Shown: positions 3,420-54,496 of the stretch, one piece after another
Position numbering within the stretch: the first letter of the stretch is position 1
Layout: every line of letters starts with the position of its first letter
Virus record (IMG/VR): IMGVR_UViG_3300008117_000049
Coordinates: 1-64,000 of that record
DNA: 64,000 bases
DNA from: a virus
Strand: one strand, 5' to 3'
The notes under the pieces: model-generated
Seen by the model: the letters and a program-made list of their open reading frames with translations, nothing else
The model's database searches: none
What the model was told of the DNA's origin: nothing
Program-made: the position numbers and the translations under genes

Positions 3420-6400
3420 ATGCCAGTAGTTGGTGAAGCCCATATTATAGTTAGGGCTATTACTACTAATGTTGCTAAAGACATTAAAAATGGTTTTAAT
3501 GGCGTTAGTGGAGTTGGCGGTAAAAATGCCGAGCAAGCGGGTCAGAATCTTTCTTCAAGATTTATGCGCGGGTGGAGCAAAAATATGGACACCAACCCGT
3601 TTACTCAATTTGCTAATGGGTTAAAAGAAATGTACCCGCAAGCGCAAGCGGGTTATGATGCCATCAATGCTTTAGCGGTCAGTGGTTATAAATTTAGTAG
3701 CGTTGGTTATATAATTGCTGCTTCTATTGGAACACTAATTGGTGCGCTAGTTGCTTTAGTTGCTGCCGCTGCTGGCGCGGCTGCTTCATTTACAGCAATA
3801 ATTGGGTTATTTATTGCAATGAAGGCCGCCACAGCAGTGGCAAAAATGGCGTTCAACGGCGTAGGCGAAGCCGTACAAAAAGCAACTCAGCAACAAAAAG
3901 CACAAACAGAAACTTTAAAAAACCTTCGTGAAGAACTTCAACAATTAAAATTTGATGCTGAAGACGCTGCCTTGGCTCAGGAACAGGCTGCTATATCTTT
4001 AGAAAAGGCTCGTGAAGGATTAGCAAGAACCGCAGACCTGCCAGCAGATAGTAGGGCTAGAAGAGAAGCCGAACTTGCTTACAAACAAGCAGATTTAAAC
4101 TATCGTAGAGCAAAAGACAGAAGTGCTGACTTAAACGAAGAATTGCGTACAGGTGCAAAAGCCAGAGCAAAAGCAGCAGCCGACGACCCTTACGCAAATC
4201 TAACTGCCACGCAAAAAGGATTTGCTAAATTTTTAGTAACTTTACAGCCAATTCTAAAAAATCTTAGAGAAGCCGTTGCCAGTGGATTTTTACCGCTTCT
4301 TCAAAAAGGTCTTAGCAAATTAATTTCTTCTGGAACTTTTAACGATATATACAACGGAATTGCTGGAATTGGAAAAGCACTAGGTAGTGCAGTAAAAGTA
4401 ATTTTAGATTTCTTTTCCTCAGCGGAAGCGGGAAAATATCTAAGAGAAATATTTGAGTCAATTCAATATGTTGTACAACAATTTGGCCCAATTCTTACAA
4501 AATTCTTTAAAGCGTTCTTTAAAATTATGGCTGCTTCTAGCCCTATTGTTAATAGACTTGCTGATTTTATATCTAGATTGCTTGACGACTTCAATGCGTT
4601 ATTAGACAAAACTGGCGATACTGGACTACGCAAATTCTTTATTACCGCCGCGGACATGGCTGGCAAATTTGGAAAAATTGCTGGAAACATACTAAAAGCA
4701 TTTGGCTCAATTATTATGGCCAACTTTGGGCCTGGCACTGGTGGAGATTATCTGCTCAATTGGTTAATTGAAGCGACCCAAGGTTTTGGAACAATGGGTA
4801 AAACTGGTAATTCACTCAAAACTTTCTTTAATGAAATTGGTGTAAATACCAAAAAAATGCTTGGTGGTATTGGTGGTATTTTTAAGGCTCTTGTGGAGTT
4901 TGGTGCTGACCCTAGAGTTGGAGAATTCTGGGTAATTATTAAACAGGCTTCTCCTTATTTTTCTAGTATCTTAAAAAAGGCTGGTCAAGCACTACCTACA
5001 GTGGCAAAATTAGTTGTAAAAATTGTTGAGATTGTTGACAAACTTACAGACAACGCAGCAATTGATAACTTCTTTAAAACTTTACTAAAAGGTGCAGATA
5101 CTTTTTCAAAAATTATTAGCAACCCTGTTGTAAATAGTATTCAATCTTTTACTGGAAAAATTCACGCCGTCACTCTTGGTCTTATGGAACTTAAAAAGTT
5201 TGCAGAACCAGTAACTCAATTTTTATTTGAAGGATTTAGAAGAGTAAATGCTGCTGTTGGTAAAACAATAGACCTTTTTCATGGTGCAAAAACTGCGGTT
5301 CAGACGGTTGCTAGGGCAGAGCAGGGGCTCCGTGAAGGTATTAAGAAAACTATGGCAAGTTTTAGGGCTGCTGCTGAAGTTTGGCCTAAATACACTAAAG
5401 GTGTAAACCAAGCAAGGCAATACTTATCTATTTTTGGTGCTAAGGCTGGTAGCACCCTGACAAACGCAACGAAAAGAACTAGAGAATTAATTGCTAGTCA
5501 AAATATTTTAGCGCGTGGTTGGGGTAGAACTCGTTTAGCAGTGGAAGCAGCCAATTTAAGATTTAAGATATTTTCTACTTTAGCGAAACAAAACTTAGCC
5601 GAACTTACCTATAGTAATAATAAATTTGTTGCTGGTTTTGCTAGAGTAGGTTCATTTATGATGGGCCACCCTATATTAATGATAATTGGCCTAATTGCCG
5701 CAGCGTTTATTACGCTTTACACAACTAATGAAAAATTCAGAAACGCTATAAATAGCACATTTAAACCAGCCTTGGATGCTTTAGGTGAAGCATTTAGAGT
5801 AATTATGGCTGCTCTTCAACCAGTAATAAATGCTTTCCAAGTTCTTATGAAAACATTATTTGGTGGAGAAAAAGGAGACGGTCAAGGTCCATTAACTAAA
5901 TTTTTCTTACTACTTGCAACTCTTATATCAGACTTAATAGTAGTAATTGCCCCGTTAGTTGCTGAATTAATATCAAAACTTATGCCAGTTGTAACTATGT
6001 TACTTCAGGTGCTTACTCCAATTATTTCAGTAATTATGAAAATTTGGTACGCTTTACAGGGCGCAATATTTAAAGTTTTGACTGTAATTATTAAAGTTGT
6101 AGTAGAACTTGTAAAAGTCATTATAAATTTGCTAATGCCAATTATAGATGCAGTAATGGCTTATCTTGAACCGCTTTTACAATACTGGGTACTAATGGCA
6201 GAATTAGTAGAAGCATTTTTTGATGCTCTTATGACTAATGACTGGGAAACATTTGGAGAAAAGTTTAAAACAATTGGTCAGGGGATAGTCCAATCTTTGG
6301 CAGATATGTTTACTGGGCTGGTAAACCTAGTTGTAGAGTTGCTAAATCTACTTATCAAACTTATGTCATATACATTAAGACCCGTCTTTGACATTTTAAA

Positions 6401-48971: not shown

Positions 48972-49310
48972 GGGGATGACAGGTTTCGACTGGCATCTGA
49001 CATTTGGTGAAGCACGCAGAGACCGCCACGCACTCTTGAAGTGTGGCAAAAACAATAAATGCTGAATCTCGTTCCGCATTCGCTTTAGTAGCGTAAAGAC
49101 TACTTAAGCCCCTAGAAAAGCAGTAGTTCTCGCTGGGCATCTAGGTTTCAAATAAAGAGGACAAACAGCACCACGGTAACAACTCAAACCGTAATTGAGT
49201 TTGACTCAGCGTCTGGTAGGTCAATCGCTGGGAAAACAAGGAAACTACCTAAGCGTGTAGAAGAACAAATTGAATATGTTAGGACAGGGGTTCAATTCCC
49301 CTCATCTCCA
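48972..49310 (+). ncRNA. ssrA: tmRNA
   Basis: 5' GGGGATGACAGGTTTCGAC; 3' GGGGTTCAATTCCCCTCATCTCCA with G3-U acceptor pair; tag ORF 49061-49096 AESRSAFALVA-stop after ATAAAT. Confidence 0.95.
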
Positions 49311-49363
49311 CGCTTGCAGACAAAGGAGCGTAAAGCGGTCTGCCCTGTAAAGGAATTCTCCAA

Positions 49364-49430
49364 GGACTGGCGTAGCCAAGGGCTACGAGTCAACTCTTGA
49401 AGTTGGTAGTGCGAATCTACACAGTCCACA
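49364..49430 (+). ncRNA. Non-canonical tRNA-like cloverleaf
   Basis: Stems GGACTG/CAGTCC, CGTAGCC/GGCTACG, CAACT/AGTTG, GTAG/CTAC with T-loop TGCGAAT. Confidence 0.55.
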
Positions 49431-49450
49431 AAAATATTTGTGTGTTGCTA

Positions 49451-49480
49451 TTGACACGATTTCCATTTTGTGTATAAGAT
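49451..49480 (+). promoter_or_regulatory. SigA-type promoter
   Basis: TTGACA-N18-TAAGAT. Confidence 0.7.
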
Positions 49481-49486
49481 ACTAAT

Positions 49487-49666
49487 AACAAGTTCTCGAC
49501 GGAGAACTTGGAGTATGGCTGAACAACTCCAATCTTCAGATGGGGGAGTAAGGCACTATCGGATACTAGCGTATCGCCTTAGCGGGCAAACGGTAGGTGT
49601 GCTGAAAAGCGGGCTAAGAACCGAACTGAATTGGCACTGGTGGTAAAACGCAATCCACTTACTCAC
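49487..49666 (+). ncRNA. Unassigned highly structured ncRNA
   Basis: Own promoter and terminator, no ORF, at least six complementary stem pairs. Confidence 0.65.
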
Positions 49667-49669
49667 TAC

Positions 49670-49706
49670 AAAAACCCTTTGGGCACCTCTCGCTCAAGGG
49701 GTTTTT
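49670..49706 (+). terminator. Intrinsic terminator
   Basis: AAAAACCCTTTGGGC...GCTCAAGGGGTTTTT. Confidence 0.75.
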
Positions 49707-49823
49707 GACTACTAAGATGGTTAGATAAGATGTTGGCGTATAAATTTGTGTTTAGATTTATACGAGCCAAGTGTCCAAAAAACGATACATTATTATATAA
49801 CTTTTGAAGAAAGACTTAGATAA

Positions 49824-50210
49824 ATGACGGATAACTACCAACCACATTTTGATACTGACTTAGAGCGTGGCAAGGTTGGCGAGAACTTACTCAACACCTT
49901 TCTGGCTGATTTGGCTGGAAATAAGTTTGAGGTGAAGACTGACTATCGTGCTTGGGAAACTGGCAACTTTAGACAGCCAGACGCAATTGACAAAAAACAA
50001 TCTGGAATCAATATCACGGAGGCTGAATACTGGTGCTTTGCTGGGCCTAATGGCAACGGCTTTGTAATGATAAAAACTGATGCTTTGAAAGAAATGCTTA
50101 GAGCAACTGACTATCGTGAAGTACACCAACCAATCTCAACACTTGACACAAACGCCAGTATTGGTAGGCTGGTTCCAGTTTTAGATGTATTGAGAAAGAT
50201 AGGGTTGTGA
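49824..50210 (+). CDS. Putative PD-(D/E)XK-fold nuclease-like protein
   Basis: GE...FEVKTD...TGN...SGI..TEAEYW pattern. Confidence 0.5.
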   Translation: MTDNYQPHFDTDLERGKVGENLLNTFLADLAGNKFEVKTDYRAWETGNFRQPDAIDKKQSGINITEAEYWCFAGPNGNGFVMIKTDALKEMLRATDYREVHQPISTLDTNASIGRLVPVLDVLRKIGL

Positions 50211-50803
50211 TGAAAACACTAAAGGGCTACGCTCTGGCTGGTAAAAGCGAGAGCAGAGAGCGTGTAGAAAATGATTTCTATGCAAGAGACCCAAAAGCAC
50301 TAGATATGCTTTTTGCCGCGGAGCCTTTCGGCGACGGCGATTATTTAGAGCCTTGTGCTGGTCAGGGGCACTTGACTAAACGCATCAAAGAACTTGTTCC
50401 AAACGCAAAGGTAGACAGTATTGACATCGTTGATAGGGGGCTTAGTGGGGTTATTGTTGCTGACTTCTTAGAATATGAAACTGAGAAAAGGTATGACTAC
50501 CTAATCACCAATCCGCCTTATTCGCTTGGCAAGGAGTTTGTAGAAAAAGGCCTAACGCTACTAAAAGACGGTGGCAAGATGGCTATGTTTTTAAAGATAC
50601 AGTTTCTAGAGGGCGACAAGCGTAGAGAATTATATAAACAAAATCCGCCCAAATACATCTATGTTTTTACCAAGCGTATGGCTACTTTTAATAATGGAAG
50701 TGAAGTAGATGAAAATGGCAAACGCTGGGCAACCACGATGTGCCACGCTTGGTTTGTGTGGGAAAAGGGATTTACTGGGGAGCCTGTGGTCAGATGGATA
50801 TAG
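50210..50803 (+). CDS. Small amino-DNA methyltransferase (NPPY)
   Basis: LEPCAGQG motif I; ITNPPY; AWFVW. Confidence 0.85.
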   Translation: MKTLKGYALAGKSESRERVENDFYARDPKALDMLFAAEPFGDGDYLEPCAGQGHLTKRIKELVPNAKVDSIDIVDRGLSGVIVADFLEYETEKRYDYLITNPPYSLGKEFVEKGLTLLKDGGKMAMFLKIQFLEGDKRRELYKQNPPKYIYVFTKRMATFNNGSEVDENGKRWATTMCHAWFVWEKGFTGEPVVRWI

Positions 50804-50937
50804 TCGGTTGGGTGTTGCTTACTTACTTTTTGCTCATTGTATTAGTAAACTTATTCAATATTATTTACATAAAAACCTGTGTTGCCCCAACGCAGAAATC
50901 TATCGATAGAAAGATAAAAAGAAATGCAAGAAGATAG
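50794..50937 (+). CDS. Small membrane protein
   Basis: MDIVGWVLLTYFLLIVLVNLFNII; overlaps neighbours by a few codons. Confidence 0.4.
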   Translation: MDIVGWVLLTYFLLIVLVNLFNIIYIKTCVAPTQKSIDRKIKRNARR

Positions 50938-51265
50938 TTTTATTGAAAAGTTTAGGGCTAGTTTGGGCGATAAAGCCGCTACTTTTGGAGCAAGCCTTGA
51001 GAAAGTATTTTCGGCGGAAGAAGAGAAATCTGAAATCATCAACGCCCCTAAAGTAATAGAAACTGAAAAAATTAAAATAGACAAAGAAGACTATGAGATT
51101 TTGGCTGTGAGTTGGAAAGAGTTGGGTGCTAGCCAAGAGCGTGAAGAAATTCGTAGCATTCTTATTCAAGCCCGACGAATAGGAAATCAGCATTCAGATA
51201 AGAAGTTTGTAGATGGAATAAACTTTGTTCTAAATGAACTAGACGAAAGAGACAAAAATAAATAG
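50924..51265 (+). CDS. Hypothetical protein
   Basis: Coupled ORF. Confidence 0.6.
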   Translation: MQEDSFIEKFRASLGDKAATFGASLEKVFSAEEEKSEIINAPKVIETEKIKIDKEDYEILAVSWKELGASQEREEIRSILIQARRIGNQHSDKKFVDGINFVLNELDERDKNK

Positions 51266-52548
51266 TGAGTAAGTACTATGAAAACGCAGACGCTGTTGTC
51301 TATCACGGGAACTGCCTAGATGAACTAAAGAATTTAGAAGATAACTCCATTGACGCTGTTGTCACCGACCCACCTTATGAACTCGGTTTTATGGGCAAAA
51401 AGTGGGACAACACTGGGATTGCTTACAATGTTGATGTTTGGCGTGAGTGTCTTAGGGTATTGAAACCTGGTGGGCATTTACTAGCCTTTGGTGGCACTAG
51501 GACTTGGCATAGGTTGGCTGTTGCTATTGAGGATGCTGGTTTTGAAGTCAGGGACAGTATTGCTTGGATTTATGGTTCTGGTTTTCCAAAGTCGCACAAC
51601 ATTAGTAAGGCGATAGATAAGTTGCAGGGCGGACAAGTAAAAGTAGGCAAGGCTTTCAAGGTCGCTGGTGAATATGGCGATAGGAATTTGCCTAATCCAA
51701 AAGGTGATAAAGATGATATGCGACATGTGGCAGATACTGATGATGCTAAGAAGTGGGATGGTTGGGGGACAGCGTTAAAACCTGCACATGAACCTATTGT
51801 TGTTGCCCGCAAACCCTTGATTGGGACTGTGGCTGAGAATGTTTTGACTTACGAAACAGGTGGGTTGAACATAGATGCAAGTCGTATAGGAACAGAAACT
51901 ATTAGTGTTCATAATGCGCCTAAAGGCAGTTTTGCTGGTGGTGAACCTGATAGGGGAAGTGATACTGAGAGTTATAGAGAACATGTTGGGCGGTGGCCTG
52001 CAAACATAATCCTAGACGAAACAACAGCCGAACTATTAGATAAACAAAGCGGAGATAGAAAAGGGATGGCTACTCAAAAAAGTTCTGCATTGAAAATTTA
52101 TGGTGGAAATTCGCTGAATGAATCTAAAACAACTTTTCCTGAAATAAGACAAGGTTTCAATGATTCTGGTGGGGCGAGCAGGTTCTTTTATGTTGCTAAA
52201 GCAAATAAGAAAGACCGAAATGAAGGTCTAGATGCACTGCCTGACCATGACTGGAGTGGAGATGGCGCTGCTATTCCTGAAAGAGCAAACAGACCTTTTA
52301 TTCCAAGCAAGAACCACCACCCGACAGTAAAACCTACTTCGCTTATGACATACCTAATCAAGTTAGTGACTCCACCTAACGGAATTGTGCTTGACCCCTT
52401 TACTGGTTCTGGTTCAACAGGTAAGGCTGCGATTAGAAACGGGTTTAGATTTGTTGGAATTGAATTGACGGAAGAATATCTGCCAATCATTACAACCAGA
52501 CTTGACCATGAAATAAAGCAAAAGACCGAGGATTTGTTTAGTGAGTAA
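51265..52548 (+). CDS. Beta-class N4-C/N6-A DNA methyltransferase
   Basis: VTDPPY, HPTVKP, LDPFTGSGSTG. Confidence 0.92.
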   Translation: MSKYYENADAVVYHGNCLDELKNLEDNSIDAVVTDPPYELGFMGKKWDNTGIAYNVDVWRECLRVLKPGGHLLAFGGTRTWHRLAVAIEDAGFEVRDSIAWIYGSGFPKSHNISKAIDKLQGGQVKVGKAFKVAGEYGDRNLPNPKGDKDDMRHVADTDDAKKWDGWGTALKPAHEPIVVARKPLIGTVAENVLTYETGGLNIDASRIGTETISVHNAPKGSFAGGEPDRGSDTESYREHVGRWPANIILDETTAELLDKQSGDRKGMATQKSSALKIYGGNSLNESKTTFPEIRQGFNDSGGASRFFYVAKANKKDRNEGLDALPDHDWSGDGAAIPERANRPFIPSKNHHPTVKPTSLMTYLIKLVTPPNGIVLDPFTGSGSTGKAAIRNGFRFVGIELTEEYLPIITTRLDHEIKQKTEDLFSE

Positions 52549-54496
52549 ATATTTTGAAGAACCTGAAGCAACTATCTATCACGGAAATTGTCTTGAAGAA
52601 CTAAAAAATTTAGCGGACAACTCGGTTGATGCGATTGTGACTGACCCACCCTATGGGTTGGGAGACTCTGACCCGGACTATATCTTAAACGCCCTTAAGA
52701 TGTGGATTGGCGGAGACAGAGAACACATTCCTGCTGGTAAAGGTTTTATGGGAAAGCAGTGGGATGCTTTTGTTCCACCACCCGCTGTGTGGGATGAGTG
52801 TTTCCGTGTGCTAAAGCCAGGCGGACATATCTTGGTGTTTGCTGGAACAAGAACGCAAGACCTTATGGGATTGTCTGTTCGTATGGCTGGCTTTGAAATT
52901 AGAGATAGCATTGCCTGGATTTATGGTCAGGGCTTTCCTAAGTCGCTAGACATCTCTAAGCAGTTAGACAAGATGGCTGGGGCTGAGCGTGAAGTTATTG
53001 GCTCTGCTGGAAATGCTCCAGATTTACGAGATGTAGGTGCTAAGTCTAAAGAAGCCATTGGCATTGATAAATTGAGTTTTGGTCAAGTTCAAGATGCTGA
53101 ACGCACTGAAATCTTAATTACTGCTCCATCGACAGACGATGCTAAGAAATGGTCTGGCTGGGGAACTGCTTTGAAGCCAGCACTTGAGCCAATCATCGTT
53201 GGTCGTAAGCCGTTGTCTGAAAAGAATGTAGCAAGCAATGTTTTGAAGTGGGGAACTGGTGGTATTAACATTGACGGTTCTCGTATTGGAACCGAGCAAA
53301 GAACTGACACCATTACTGAAAATGGTTTTGGTAACAACTTTATGGATGATGGCTGGGTTCCATCTGGCAAGACTTATGAAAAAACTGTCACTGGTCGTTT
53401 TCCAAGCAATGTAATTCTTCAACACTCAGATGGCTGTACGCCAACTGGACAAGTCATAACTGGGAAAACTTCTGCTGGTAATCGCACTGCTACTTTTGGA
53501 ACGCAAGAGACAGTTTCAGGTGGAGATGGTTCGGGGGGATTTGATGGATACGAGTACAAAATTGAAGTTTACCAATGTGTAGATGGTTGCCCAATCAAAG
53601 AACTCAATGAGCAGAGTGGCGTAACTAAGTCTGGTCAGCCTAGAGAAGACAGGGGAACTGGTGGCATTTGGAGCGAGGGAAATGGAGTTCCTGTTGGTCA
53701 GCAGTATGGAGATGCTGGTGGAGCAAGTCGTTTCTTCCATCAAACAACTCCAGATGAAGAACCTATTGGTCGTTTTCCATCTAATGTTATCTTTGGACAT
53801 ACTGAAGAGTGCGTTGAAGTCGGTGTAGTAGAAGAAAAATACTCAATCAACAAAACAGAAGACTGGACTGGCTTTGGTCAAACAGAGCGACCAGACTATG
53901 TTGGTGAAGATAAAGTTGTAAGCACTTCAGTTTGGGAATGTGCTGATGGTTGTCCTATCAAAGAACTTGATGAACAAACCCAAGGAAAAATTACTCAAGG
54001 TCATTGGGCTCAGACTAAAGTCAGTGGGTATGGTGAGTTTGGTAGTGGCTCTGCTGAATACCTTGGAGTTGGTCGTAAAGCAGAAGAAAAGAGTGGTGGA
54101 GCATCACGCTTTTTCTATCAAGCAAAAGCCAATAAAAAAGACCGAAACGAGGGCCTTGGTGAAGACTTGCCTGAAAAGGGTAAGGTTTATAATGGAAAGT
54201 CTGCTGATAGTGCTGGCAACGCACCGGGTTCAGTAGAAGACAAATTCACTACTCAGCCAGCAAAGAACTTCCACCCAACCGTGAAACCAACGGCTCTTAT
54301 GGAATATCTTGTCAAGTTAGTAACTCCAAAAGGCGGAATTGTGTTAGACCCGTTTTCTGGAAGTGGTTCTACTGGCAAGGCCGCTGTGCGAAATGGCTTC
54401 AAGTTTATTGGAGTGGAAATTACTGAAGAGTATTTGCCTATCTTAAAAGCCAGAGTTGAGTTTGAAATCAACGATAAAAGAAGTAGCCTATTTTAG
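52541..54496 (+). CDS. Beta-class N4-C/N6-A DNA methyltransferase with a duplicated internal module
   Basis: VTDPPY, HPTVKP, LDPFSGSGSTG; two GRFPSNVI...GGASRFF modules. Confidence 0.92.
   Translation: MSKYFEEPEATIYHGNCLEELKNLADNSVDAIVTDPPYGLGDSDPDYILNALKMWIGGDREHIPAGKGFMGKQWDAFVPPPAVWDECFRVLKPGGHILVFAGTRTQDLMGLSVRMAGFEIRDSIAWIYGQGFPKSLDISKQLDKMAGAEREVIGSAGNAPDLRDVGAKSKEAIGIDKLSFGQVQDAERTEILITAPSTDDAKKWSGWGTALKPALEPIIVGRKPLSEKNVASNVLKWGTGGINIDGSRIGTEQRTDTITENGFGNNFMDDGWVPSGKTYEKTVTGRFPSNVILQHSDGCTPTGQVITGKTSAGNRTATFGTQETVSGGDGSGGFDGYEYKIEVYQCVDGCPIKELNEQSGVTKSGQPREDRGTGGIWSEGNGVPVGQQYGDAGGASRFFHQTTPDEEPIGRFPSNVIFGHTEECVEVGVVEEKYSINKTEDWTGFGQTERPDYVGEDKVVSTSVWECADGCPIKELDEQTQGKITQGHWAQTKVSGYGEFGSGSAEYLGVGRKAEEKSGGASRFFYQAKANKKDRNEGLGEDLPEKGKVYNGKSADSAGNAPGSVEDKFTTQPAKNFHPTVKPTALMEYLVKLVTPKGGIVLDPFSGSGSTGKAAVRNGFKFIGVEITEEYLPILKARVEFEINDKRSSLF

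Follow-up and report, generated by a model that had tools for sequence, protein, structure and literature searches.

In this study we report that a densely structured RNA encoded by a freshwater phage belongs, over its full length, to the manA RNA family and represents a divergent, short subclass of it. The DNA analysed, hereafter called the window, comprises 64,000 nucleotides (positions 1 to 64,000 of IMG/VR record IMGVR_UViG_3300008117_000049) and is the first part of a viral record that measures 135,336 bp and carries direct terminal repeats; the RNA lies on its plus strand at 49487-49668, beside the transfer-messenger RNA (tmRNA) gene of the phage. An original prediction, made without database searches, had described this segment as a structured noncoding RNA of about 180-220 nt that extends from a promoter to a terminator beside the phage tmRNA, and had suggested that it may be a minimised relative of the large phage RNA ROOL or a new RNA class. 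The motifs and the fold confirm the description, while the proposed kinship falls, since the RNA belongs to a catalogued family. What is new is the subclass and its genomic context. We consider it likely that the window RNA is a stand-alone phage manA RNA, which acts in trans as a folded and probably self-associating particle and not as a switch for the gene downstream of it.

The assignment is carried by a match to the Rfam manA model (RF01745) at 49492-49669 on the plus strand, which reaches 64.9 bits where the gathering score is 55.2 (E 3e-14), spans model positions 1-192 of 192 and recurs in a whole-genome Rfam search. Only the tmRNA and manA were matched when the whole window was compared with Rfam at the gathering threshold, and a permissive local Rfam scan of 49300-49850 at E<=10 detected no ROOL, GOLLD, raiA, RNase P or transfer RNA (tRNA), its two extra hits, an AilA thermometer (18.6 bits) and NrrF (12.1 bits), being at chance level. 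By alignment to the consensus, all the conserved blocks of manA are present, namely the GACG loop, CUGAAnAA, UAAGG and GGUA-N6-AAUCC, and it is these blocks that had earlier been likened to ROOL segments. The Rfam scan suggested at that time as a check has thus returned a full-length match to a known family, the outcome then described as real but not novel.

Relatives were collected by two exact-pattern scans of IMG/VR based on the conserved manA blocks, which yielded at least 215 loci that do not constitute a random sample. By the length of the second gap, the matches listed divide into 98 'long' and 117 'short' loci. The long loci are classical marine manA RNAs, three of which were scanned by Rfam and scored 180-185 bits. 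Among the short loci, alignment A2 led us to judge 91 (46 unique cores) as true relatives and 26 (19 unique) as chance matches, the latter mostly in apparent coding regions. A covariance model, R1, was built from 48 sequences, that is, the window RNA, its homologue in Rhodococcus phage Francesca (locus L001) and the 46 unique cores. This model scores the subclass at 75-166 bits, as it must by construction (155.4 bits for the window), and the classical manA loci at 27.9-72.5 bits, and at E<=0.001 it found no chance pattern match except L199 (44.3 bits). Two tRNA-adjacent loci that had been left out of the Rfam scan, L087 and L120, were both confirmed by R1. The short and classical groups therefore recognise each other, indicating one family with a distinct short subclass, whose members measure about 175-195 nt and come from viral contigs. 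The columns of the GACG, CUGAAnAA, UAAGG and GGUA-N6-AAUCC blocks are invariant in all 48 subclass sequences, an invariance that is partly built in because the search pattern demanded the last three of them.

The short subclass occurs almost only on viral contigs. Searched by blastn with the window stretch, a set of 50,697 phage records gave a single match, Rhodococcus phage Francesca, and the subclass types typified by L045, L027, L010 and L076 had no blastn match in the same records. When 185,579 species genomes, one per prokaryote species, were scanned with the pattern, 30 matches were obtained, 29 of which fail R1 and have no adjacent tRNA. The single real member from a prokaryote assembly (L219, 127.2 bits, with tRNA-Met 122 nt downstream) lies on a 91.6-kb contig of a metagenome-assembled genome labelled Polynucleobacter, and this contig may be a phage that was binned with the genome. 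Exactly one copy is present in each of the six viral records that were searched whole. The L010 group comprises at least 23 loci that share one identical core.

The helices of the manA consensus are kept by compensatory change. The segment 49486-49712 folds with a minimum free energy of -84.6 kcal/mol (z -5.84), and none of 200 shuffles folds as well, in agreement with the dense pairing described before. RNAalifold, applied to the 48 sequences, proposes 30 pairs, 25 of them with compensatory changes. Together with helices from the minimum free energy fold of the window, these pairs make up a 49-pair model in which 85.9% of the cells are paired, compared with 62.4% in shuffles; its covariation score of 0.604 (0.199 shuffled) was reached by 0 of 500 shuffles, and sliding the 3' partners by 1-3 columns leaves at most 49.8% paired. 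The strongest helices are the 5' hairpin, the closing stem, the CUGAAnAA/UAAGG arm and the terminal GGUA...AAUCC hairpin (Table 1). Owing to a heterogeneous alignment in that region, the middle arms are less well established.

This model sorts the stems that had been proposed from the window alone. Covariation supports the 5' hairpin at 49489-49510, GATAC/GTATC and GTGG...CCAC, while TTGGAGT/ACTCCAA, CTTAGC/GCTAAG, CGGT/ACCG and GAGTAAG/CTTACTC are jointly paired in 50.6% of cells compared with 48.9% when shuffled and do no better than slid controls. GAGTAAG/CTTACTC had been proposed as a long-range closing stem; its 3' strand was placed correctly, but the partner is 49511-49515 and not 49546-49552. 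Such alternative pairings arose because GGAGU-like and ACUCC-like segments each recur in the RNA. The CUUAGC/GCUAAG complementarity of the window is lost in L150 and L159, among the nearest relatives listed, which read GCUUAG. The motif CTGAA does occur three times as noted (49519, 49602 and 49626), and only the first copy is conserved. A separate observation concerns two small hairpin loops (columns 84-98 and 104-116 of alignment A3, 49562-49587), which change together across the subclass: most members have UAGC/UAGC, the L045 type has GUGGU/AACCA, and L145 has the swapped pair UAACC/GUGGU. Since UGGU and ACCA are complementary, the two loops would be compatible with a loop-loop contact of the kind described as kissing loops in a recent preprint on other manA RNAs (10.64898/2026.07.01.735769).

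The RNA is bracketed by transcription signals of its own (Table 1). A near-consensus promoter had been noted with TAAGAT (49475-49480) as its -10 element, 18 nt from the TTGACA. The TTGACA is indeed present, and this pair of hexamers matches the consensus at 10 of 12 positions; TTGACA-N16-TATAAG is the better reading and is the sole match of at least 11/12 on either strand of the window. Since mononucleotide shuffles average 2.4 such matches, the window count alone is not enriched, and the weight of the promoter comes from its position 8-9 nt before the conserved RNA and not from its rarity. Transcription is predicted to start at about 49485-49487, so that the unit begins 175 nt downstream of the phage tmRNA. 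The intrinsic terminator is equally well borne out, its hairpin having a free energy of -23.8 kcal/mol (z -7.3) that none of 200 shuffles equals and pair probabilities of 0.99-1.0 whether the closing stem P1 is allowed or forbidden.

Comparison with relatives shows where the conserved unit ends. Between about 49487 and about 49668, the closest relatives among the loci listed (L067, L150 and L159) share more than 90% identity with the window, and their flanks cannot be aligned with it. Relatives do not conserve the terminator. Where a member has no tRNA upstream, promoter-like hexamers are present whose ends lie 8-14 nt ahead of the conserved AACA start, and members with an upstream tRNA start right after the tRNA 3' end.

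Table 1. The manA-family RNA of the window, its helices and transcription signals, and the neighbouring tmRNA (positions counted from the first nucleotide of the window)
Feature	Position	Strand	Details
manA-family RNA core, short subclass	49487-49668	+	RF01745; own model R1 at 49487-49672, 155.4 bits; >90% identity of relatives ends at core limits
Sigma-70-type promoter	49451-49478	+	-35 TTGACA 49451-49456, 16-nt spacer, -10 TATAAG 49473-49478; 11/12 match
5' hairpin	49489-49510	+	9 bp, GACG loop within conserved CGACGG; 7 pairs, all compensatory; also in minimum free energy fold
Closing stem P1, 5' strand GAGUA	49511-49515	+	Pairs with 49660-49664; 5/5 pairs compensatory, 98.8% of cells paired, probabilities 0.86-0.97
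CUGAAnAA/UAAGG arm	49518-49554	+	Stems 49518-49520/49552-49554 and 49526-49531/49544-49549; invariant internal loop; 97.9-100% paired, 6/9 pairs covary
Two-hairpin arm	49556-49596	+	UAGC-loop hairpins 49562-49575 and 49576-49587, closed by 49556-49561/49591-49596; helices 5-9, 58-86% paired, alignment less certain
Arm P5	49599-49637	+	Outer 49599-49603/49633-49637 (helix 10, 80% paired, 5/5 covary); inner 49610-49612/49621-49623 (helix 11, 57.5%, weak)
Terminal hairpin GGUGG-UAAAACGCAAU-CCACU	49639-49659	+	Invariant GGUA...AAUCC; 100% paired, 3/5 pairs covary
Closing stem P1, 3' strand UACUC	49660-49664	+	Pairs with 49511-49515
Intrinsic terminator	49669-49707	+	16-bp stem, 7-nt loop, U run 49701-49705, matching A run on 5' side
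Phage tmRNA	48972-49311	+	ARAGORN, tag AESRSAFALVA; Rfam 48972-49313, 133.4 bits; context, not part of the manA RNA

The genomic context of the relatives provides the second line of evidence. Among the loci listed, a tRNA or tmRNA gene on the same strand lies no more than 150 nt away in 34 of the 46 unique members of the short subclass; for 29 the distance is at most 40 nt, and 16 have such genes at both ends. Counted over the 91 listed member loci, 73 have a neighbour of this kind at up to 150 nt, and every one of the 121 flanking genes at this distance lies on the strand of the RNA. The corresponding figures are 2 of 98 for the classical marine manA loci, many of which lie on short contigs, and 0 of 26 for the chance matches. 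Because the tRNA calls were made by ARAGORN, which misses some tRNAs seen by Rfam, such as one 7 nt upstream of the RNA in L119, these neighbour counts are lower bounds. The gaps to the tRNA genes are often as small as 0-13 nt. For example, the Francesca manA RNA (72.9 bits, L001 3982-4164) is inserted in a long tRNA array between tRNA-Met, which ends at 3977, and tRNA-Lys, which starts at 4166, leaving gaps of 4 nt and 1 nt, and the flanking tRNAs in L119 are 7 and 0 nt away. In L067 the gene order is ribonucleotide reductase, glutaredoxin, WhiB, helix-turn-helix protein, tmRNA, manA and, 49 nt beyond manA, tRNA-Gly, and synteny with the window extends to the protein level for the ribonucleotide reductase (79%), the glutaredoxin, WhiB and the helix-turn-helix protein (90%). 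The WhiB and helix-turn-helix genes are also present at three further loci (L006, L074 and L197), where tRNA-Gly follows the RNA at a distance of 30 nt. The downstream neighbour thus varies among relatives and may be a tRNA, an open reading frame (ORF) or a terminator, with no consistent gene class. A unit that is bounded differently in different phages is what is expected of a discrete RNA product and not of a leader for one gene.

Several features of these arrays were observed in addition. Directly upstream of manA in L067 (7420-7470) and in L200 there is a T-arm-like GGTTCAAGTCC hairpin followed by ...TCCACA, called neither by ARAGORN nor by the Rfam tRNA model, which could represent a tRNA, decayed or minimal, by which a processing site is still provided. 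In L045, L128 and L130 the spacer of about 120 nt from the upstream tRNA to manA is conserved among the three loci and possibly forms another structured RNA module within the array. The L010 group has about 130 nt between the manA RNA and tRNA-Tyr, and one classical marine manA (L064 1120-1384, 184.6 bits) begins 0 nt after a tRNA.

It has been recognized since 2010 that manA is a riboswitch candidate, nearly all examples of which come from marine metagenomes, T4-like cyanophages and two gamma-proteobacteria (Weinberg et al. 2010, PMC2864571), and that it commonly lies within 5' untranslated regions (5' UTRs) of mannose or fructose, nucleotide-synthesis, chaperone and photosynthesis genes (PMC2864571). 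The same description is given in the available text of a cyanophage paper (PMC9964418), and the manA structure was revised in Rfam 14 (PMC7779021). A review of former orphan riboswitches contains no occurrence of manA. More recently, Ren and colleagues described in a preprint (bioRxiv 10.64898/2026.07.01.735769, July 2026) the cryo-electron microscopy of manA RNAs in vitro, which form pentamer-based octamers or decamers and a 60-subunit icosahedral cage. These assemblies are held by kissing loops and a GNRA-receptor contact, and the peripheral helices decide the oligomeric state (10.64898/2026.07.01.735769). In the portion of that preprint available to us, the term tRNA does not occur, no biological setting is given and manA is still called putatively cis-regulatory (10.64898/2026.07.01.735769). 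We found no paper linking manA to tRNA arrays in the searchable literature, although the supplementary context lists of Weinberg et al. (2010) may show such a link.

The window RNA resembles classical manA in several respects. It has the same order of helices, that is, the 5' GACG hairpin, the closing stem, the CUGAAnAA/UAAGG arm, two arms and the GGUA...AAUCC hairpin; it is likewise phage-borne, and it matches the family over its full length above the curated threshold. However, it is about 15-20 nt shorter and carries UAGC loops in place of the classical ACCA loop. In contrast to classical manA with its T4-like cyanophages and gamma-proteobacteria, the RNA and its isolate homologue are carried by a freshwater phage that encodes a WhiB protein and by a Rhodococcus phage, respectively. 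Neither is the typical 5'-UTR context found, as the ORF with a phrog_13596 match lies behind a terminator and the relatives reside in tRNA arrays. The assemblies of the preprint are formed by RNAs of the same Rfam family, although the constructs named in its available text are not of the short subclass, from which they differ in peripheral helices.

The comparison with ROOL and GOLLD, drawn already in the original prediction, holds as a functional analogy and fails as homology. These phage and prophage RNAs are described in the accessible text of published work as lying 'often near tRNA islands' and forming nanocages (Weinberg 2009/2017; Kretsch et al. 2025, PMC12286853; PMC5737381). The short subclass shares this neighbourhood in the 34 members counted above, and the window copy stands beside a tmRNA; in addition, cages have now been reported for manA RNAs, as the preprint states. 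However, there is no homology of sequence or structure, and ROOL and GOLLD measure 500-800 nt or more compared with about 182 nt for the window RNA. That the window RNA works in their way is plausible by analogy.

Based on these comparisons, we propose the following course of events. In the window, transcription would start from the sigma-70-type promoter near 49486 and end at the terminator (49669-49707), which would release a discrete RNA of about 180-220 nt. In relatives that lie within tRNA arrays, the ends would be set instead by RNase P acting at the 5' end of the next tRNA and by the 3' trimming of the preceding one. A discrete unit with such variable boundaries argues for a folded particle that acts in trans rather than for a switch. 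By homology with the manA RNAs seen by cryo-electron microscopy, the RNA may then associate with itself through loop-loop contacts into pentamer-based oligomers, and it probably does so much as reported for other members of the family. It would thus be a small counterpart to ROOL and GOLLD, the nanocage RNAs likewise placed in tRNA islands. The many members that are flush between tRNA genes, together with a window copy that has a private promoter and terminator, point to a free-standing product in the niche of ROOL and GOLLD.

Several observations weigh against this proposal. The window RNA scores only about 65 bits with the Rfam model, compared with about 180 bits for marine cyanophage manA, and part of a peripheral arm is missing; because peripheral helices decide the oligomeric state according to the preprint, assembly of the window RNA is not assured. 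An all-against-all column scan for kissing or pseudoknot partners revealed no convincing covarying loop-loop partner for the two UAGC loops, the only runs being of 3 bp and of mostly conserved letters. Among the unique subclass members listed, 12 of 46 have no tRNA within 150 nt. No transcript of the manA RNA was seen among four sets of RNA-library contigs, which cannot show absence and so speak neither for nor against its expression. Finally, the order of promoter, structured RNA, terminator and ORF in the window would suit a regulatory leader, and the family was first described as a 5'-UTR riboswitch candidate (PMC2864571, as far as its accessible text goes).

This order and this first description lead to the alternative of a transcriptional riboswitch, in which a manA aptamer and an expression platform at 49669-49707 would control the ORF at 49824-50210 and the methyltransferase genes behind it. 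Like transcriptional riboswitches, the window unit places an intrinsic terminator behind a structured domain and ahead of an ORF, and in L159 the RNA is followed about 70 nt on by a ribosome-binding site and an ORF without a canonical terminator. However, riboswitches of this kind depend on a mutually exclusive pairing, and none is apparent here: the terminator forms equally well with P1 free or forbidden, the best duplexes between a terminator arm and the aptamer (-12.2 and -10.1 kcal/mol) are about 12 kcal/mol weaker than the hairpin, and a search for an antiterminator found none evident. Conservation extends neither to the terminator nor to the downstream gene, not even where the RNA of a relative is more than 90% identical, and the 16 members that sit between two tRNA genes have no ORF to regulate. 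Moreover, the downstream protein of the window, which matches only phrog_13596, has no link to mannose, nucleotide or photosynthesis genes. We therefore regard a riboswitch as unlikely, and the cis-regulatory reading in general is disfavoured.

It could also be argued that the RNA serves the neighbouring tRNA and tmRNA genes, either as a module for processing or stabilising an RNA operon or as a tRNA-shaped decoy for host enzymes that handle or attack tRNAs. The tight same-strand packing on tRNA genes, with gaps of 0-13 nt at many listed loci, would agree with this, and so would the terminal hairpin, which stacks directly on the closing stem much as a T arm may be compared to stack on an acceptor stem. 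However, the window copy is equipped with a promoter and a terminator of its own and lacks a neighbouring tRNA, ARAGORN calls it neither a tRNA nor a tmRNA, the Rfam tRNA model is unmatched at E<=10 in 49300-49850, and nothing in a tRNA corresponds to the conserved 5' hairpin and internal loops. Such a service role strikes us as improbable. A minimised ROOL-like RNA or a wholly new class, to which the phage origin and the tRNA and tmRNA neighbourhood known for ROOL and GOLLD (PMC5737381, PMC12286853, in the text accessible) might point, is very hard to reconcile with the full-length manA match and the lack of any ROOL or GOLLD match in the window at the gathering threshold or in 49300-49850 at E<=10. 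Contrary to the earlier statement that the segment holds no ORF, a mechanical call gives a 58-aa GTG ORF (49470-49646) that overlaps the RNA, but the chance that it is a small protein gene is negligible, since its frame, which stays open only in the three nearest listed relatives (L067, L150 and L159), is interrupted in L001 and L006, stops occur in each of the three forward frames for every one of the 48 aligned homologues, and the helix substitutions are compensatory, the pattern of selection on RNA.

The whole record of the phage has a G+C content of 42% and contains one tmRNA and, by ARAGORN, zero tRNA genes. The genes near the manA RNA encode, among other products, a class II ribonucleotide reductase, a glutaredoxin, a regulator of the WhiB family (E 1.3e-12) and several DNA methyltransferases, and the ORF just downstream (49824-50210) has phrog_13596, of unassigned function, as its sole match. 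The WhiB gene and the homologue in a Rhodococcus phage suggest an actinobacterial host. The stretch is present in many freshwater and lake metagenome runs. Contigs from RNA libraries (4 runs from 3 studies, with 24 runs listed) cover only 48984-49311, which is the tmRNA, and one of them stops at 49311, the mature 3' end, which supports expression of the tmRNA. In the gap between the tmRNA and the promoter (49314-49440) there are three hairpins, GCAGAC...GUCUGC (about 49317-49343), GGCGUAGCC...GGCUACG and GUAG...CUAC, none followed by a T run, that may be 3' processing or stability elements of the tmRNA. Further downstream, three consecutive DNA methyltransferase genes of 198, 427 and 651 aa occupy 50207-54496; the two larger proteins have N- and C-terminal sequence in common, and their genes overlap by 8 bp.

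In summary, the window RNA is best explained as a free-standing phage manA RNA, and its subclass may offer a biological setting for a family that has been an orphan riboswitch candidate since 2010 and for which in-vitro cages were reported in 2026 with no such setting in the available text of the preprint. More broadly, we put forward tentatively, and with somewhat less than even confidence, that manA-type RNAs are not riboswitches and form a third kind of shell-building RNA in phage tRNA islands beside ROOL and GOLLD, which is either cut out of tRNA arrays by the enzymes of tRNA processing or, where a phage lacks tRNAs, produced from its own promoter and terminator beside a tmRNA; the short subclass would then reveal how the family is really expressed. 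If this is true, three unrelated families of cage-forming RNA would occupy one niche, which would suggest a shared role in the takeover of translation by phages; this role might be to hold or shield phage tRNAs or tmRNA, or to trap a host factor. The purpose of phage RNA cages would then become approachable with an RNA of 180 nt, for which Rhodococcus phage Francesca provides a cultivable carrier of a member.

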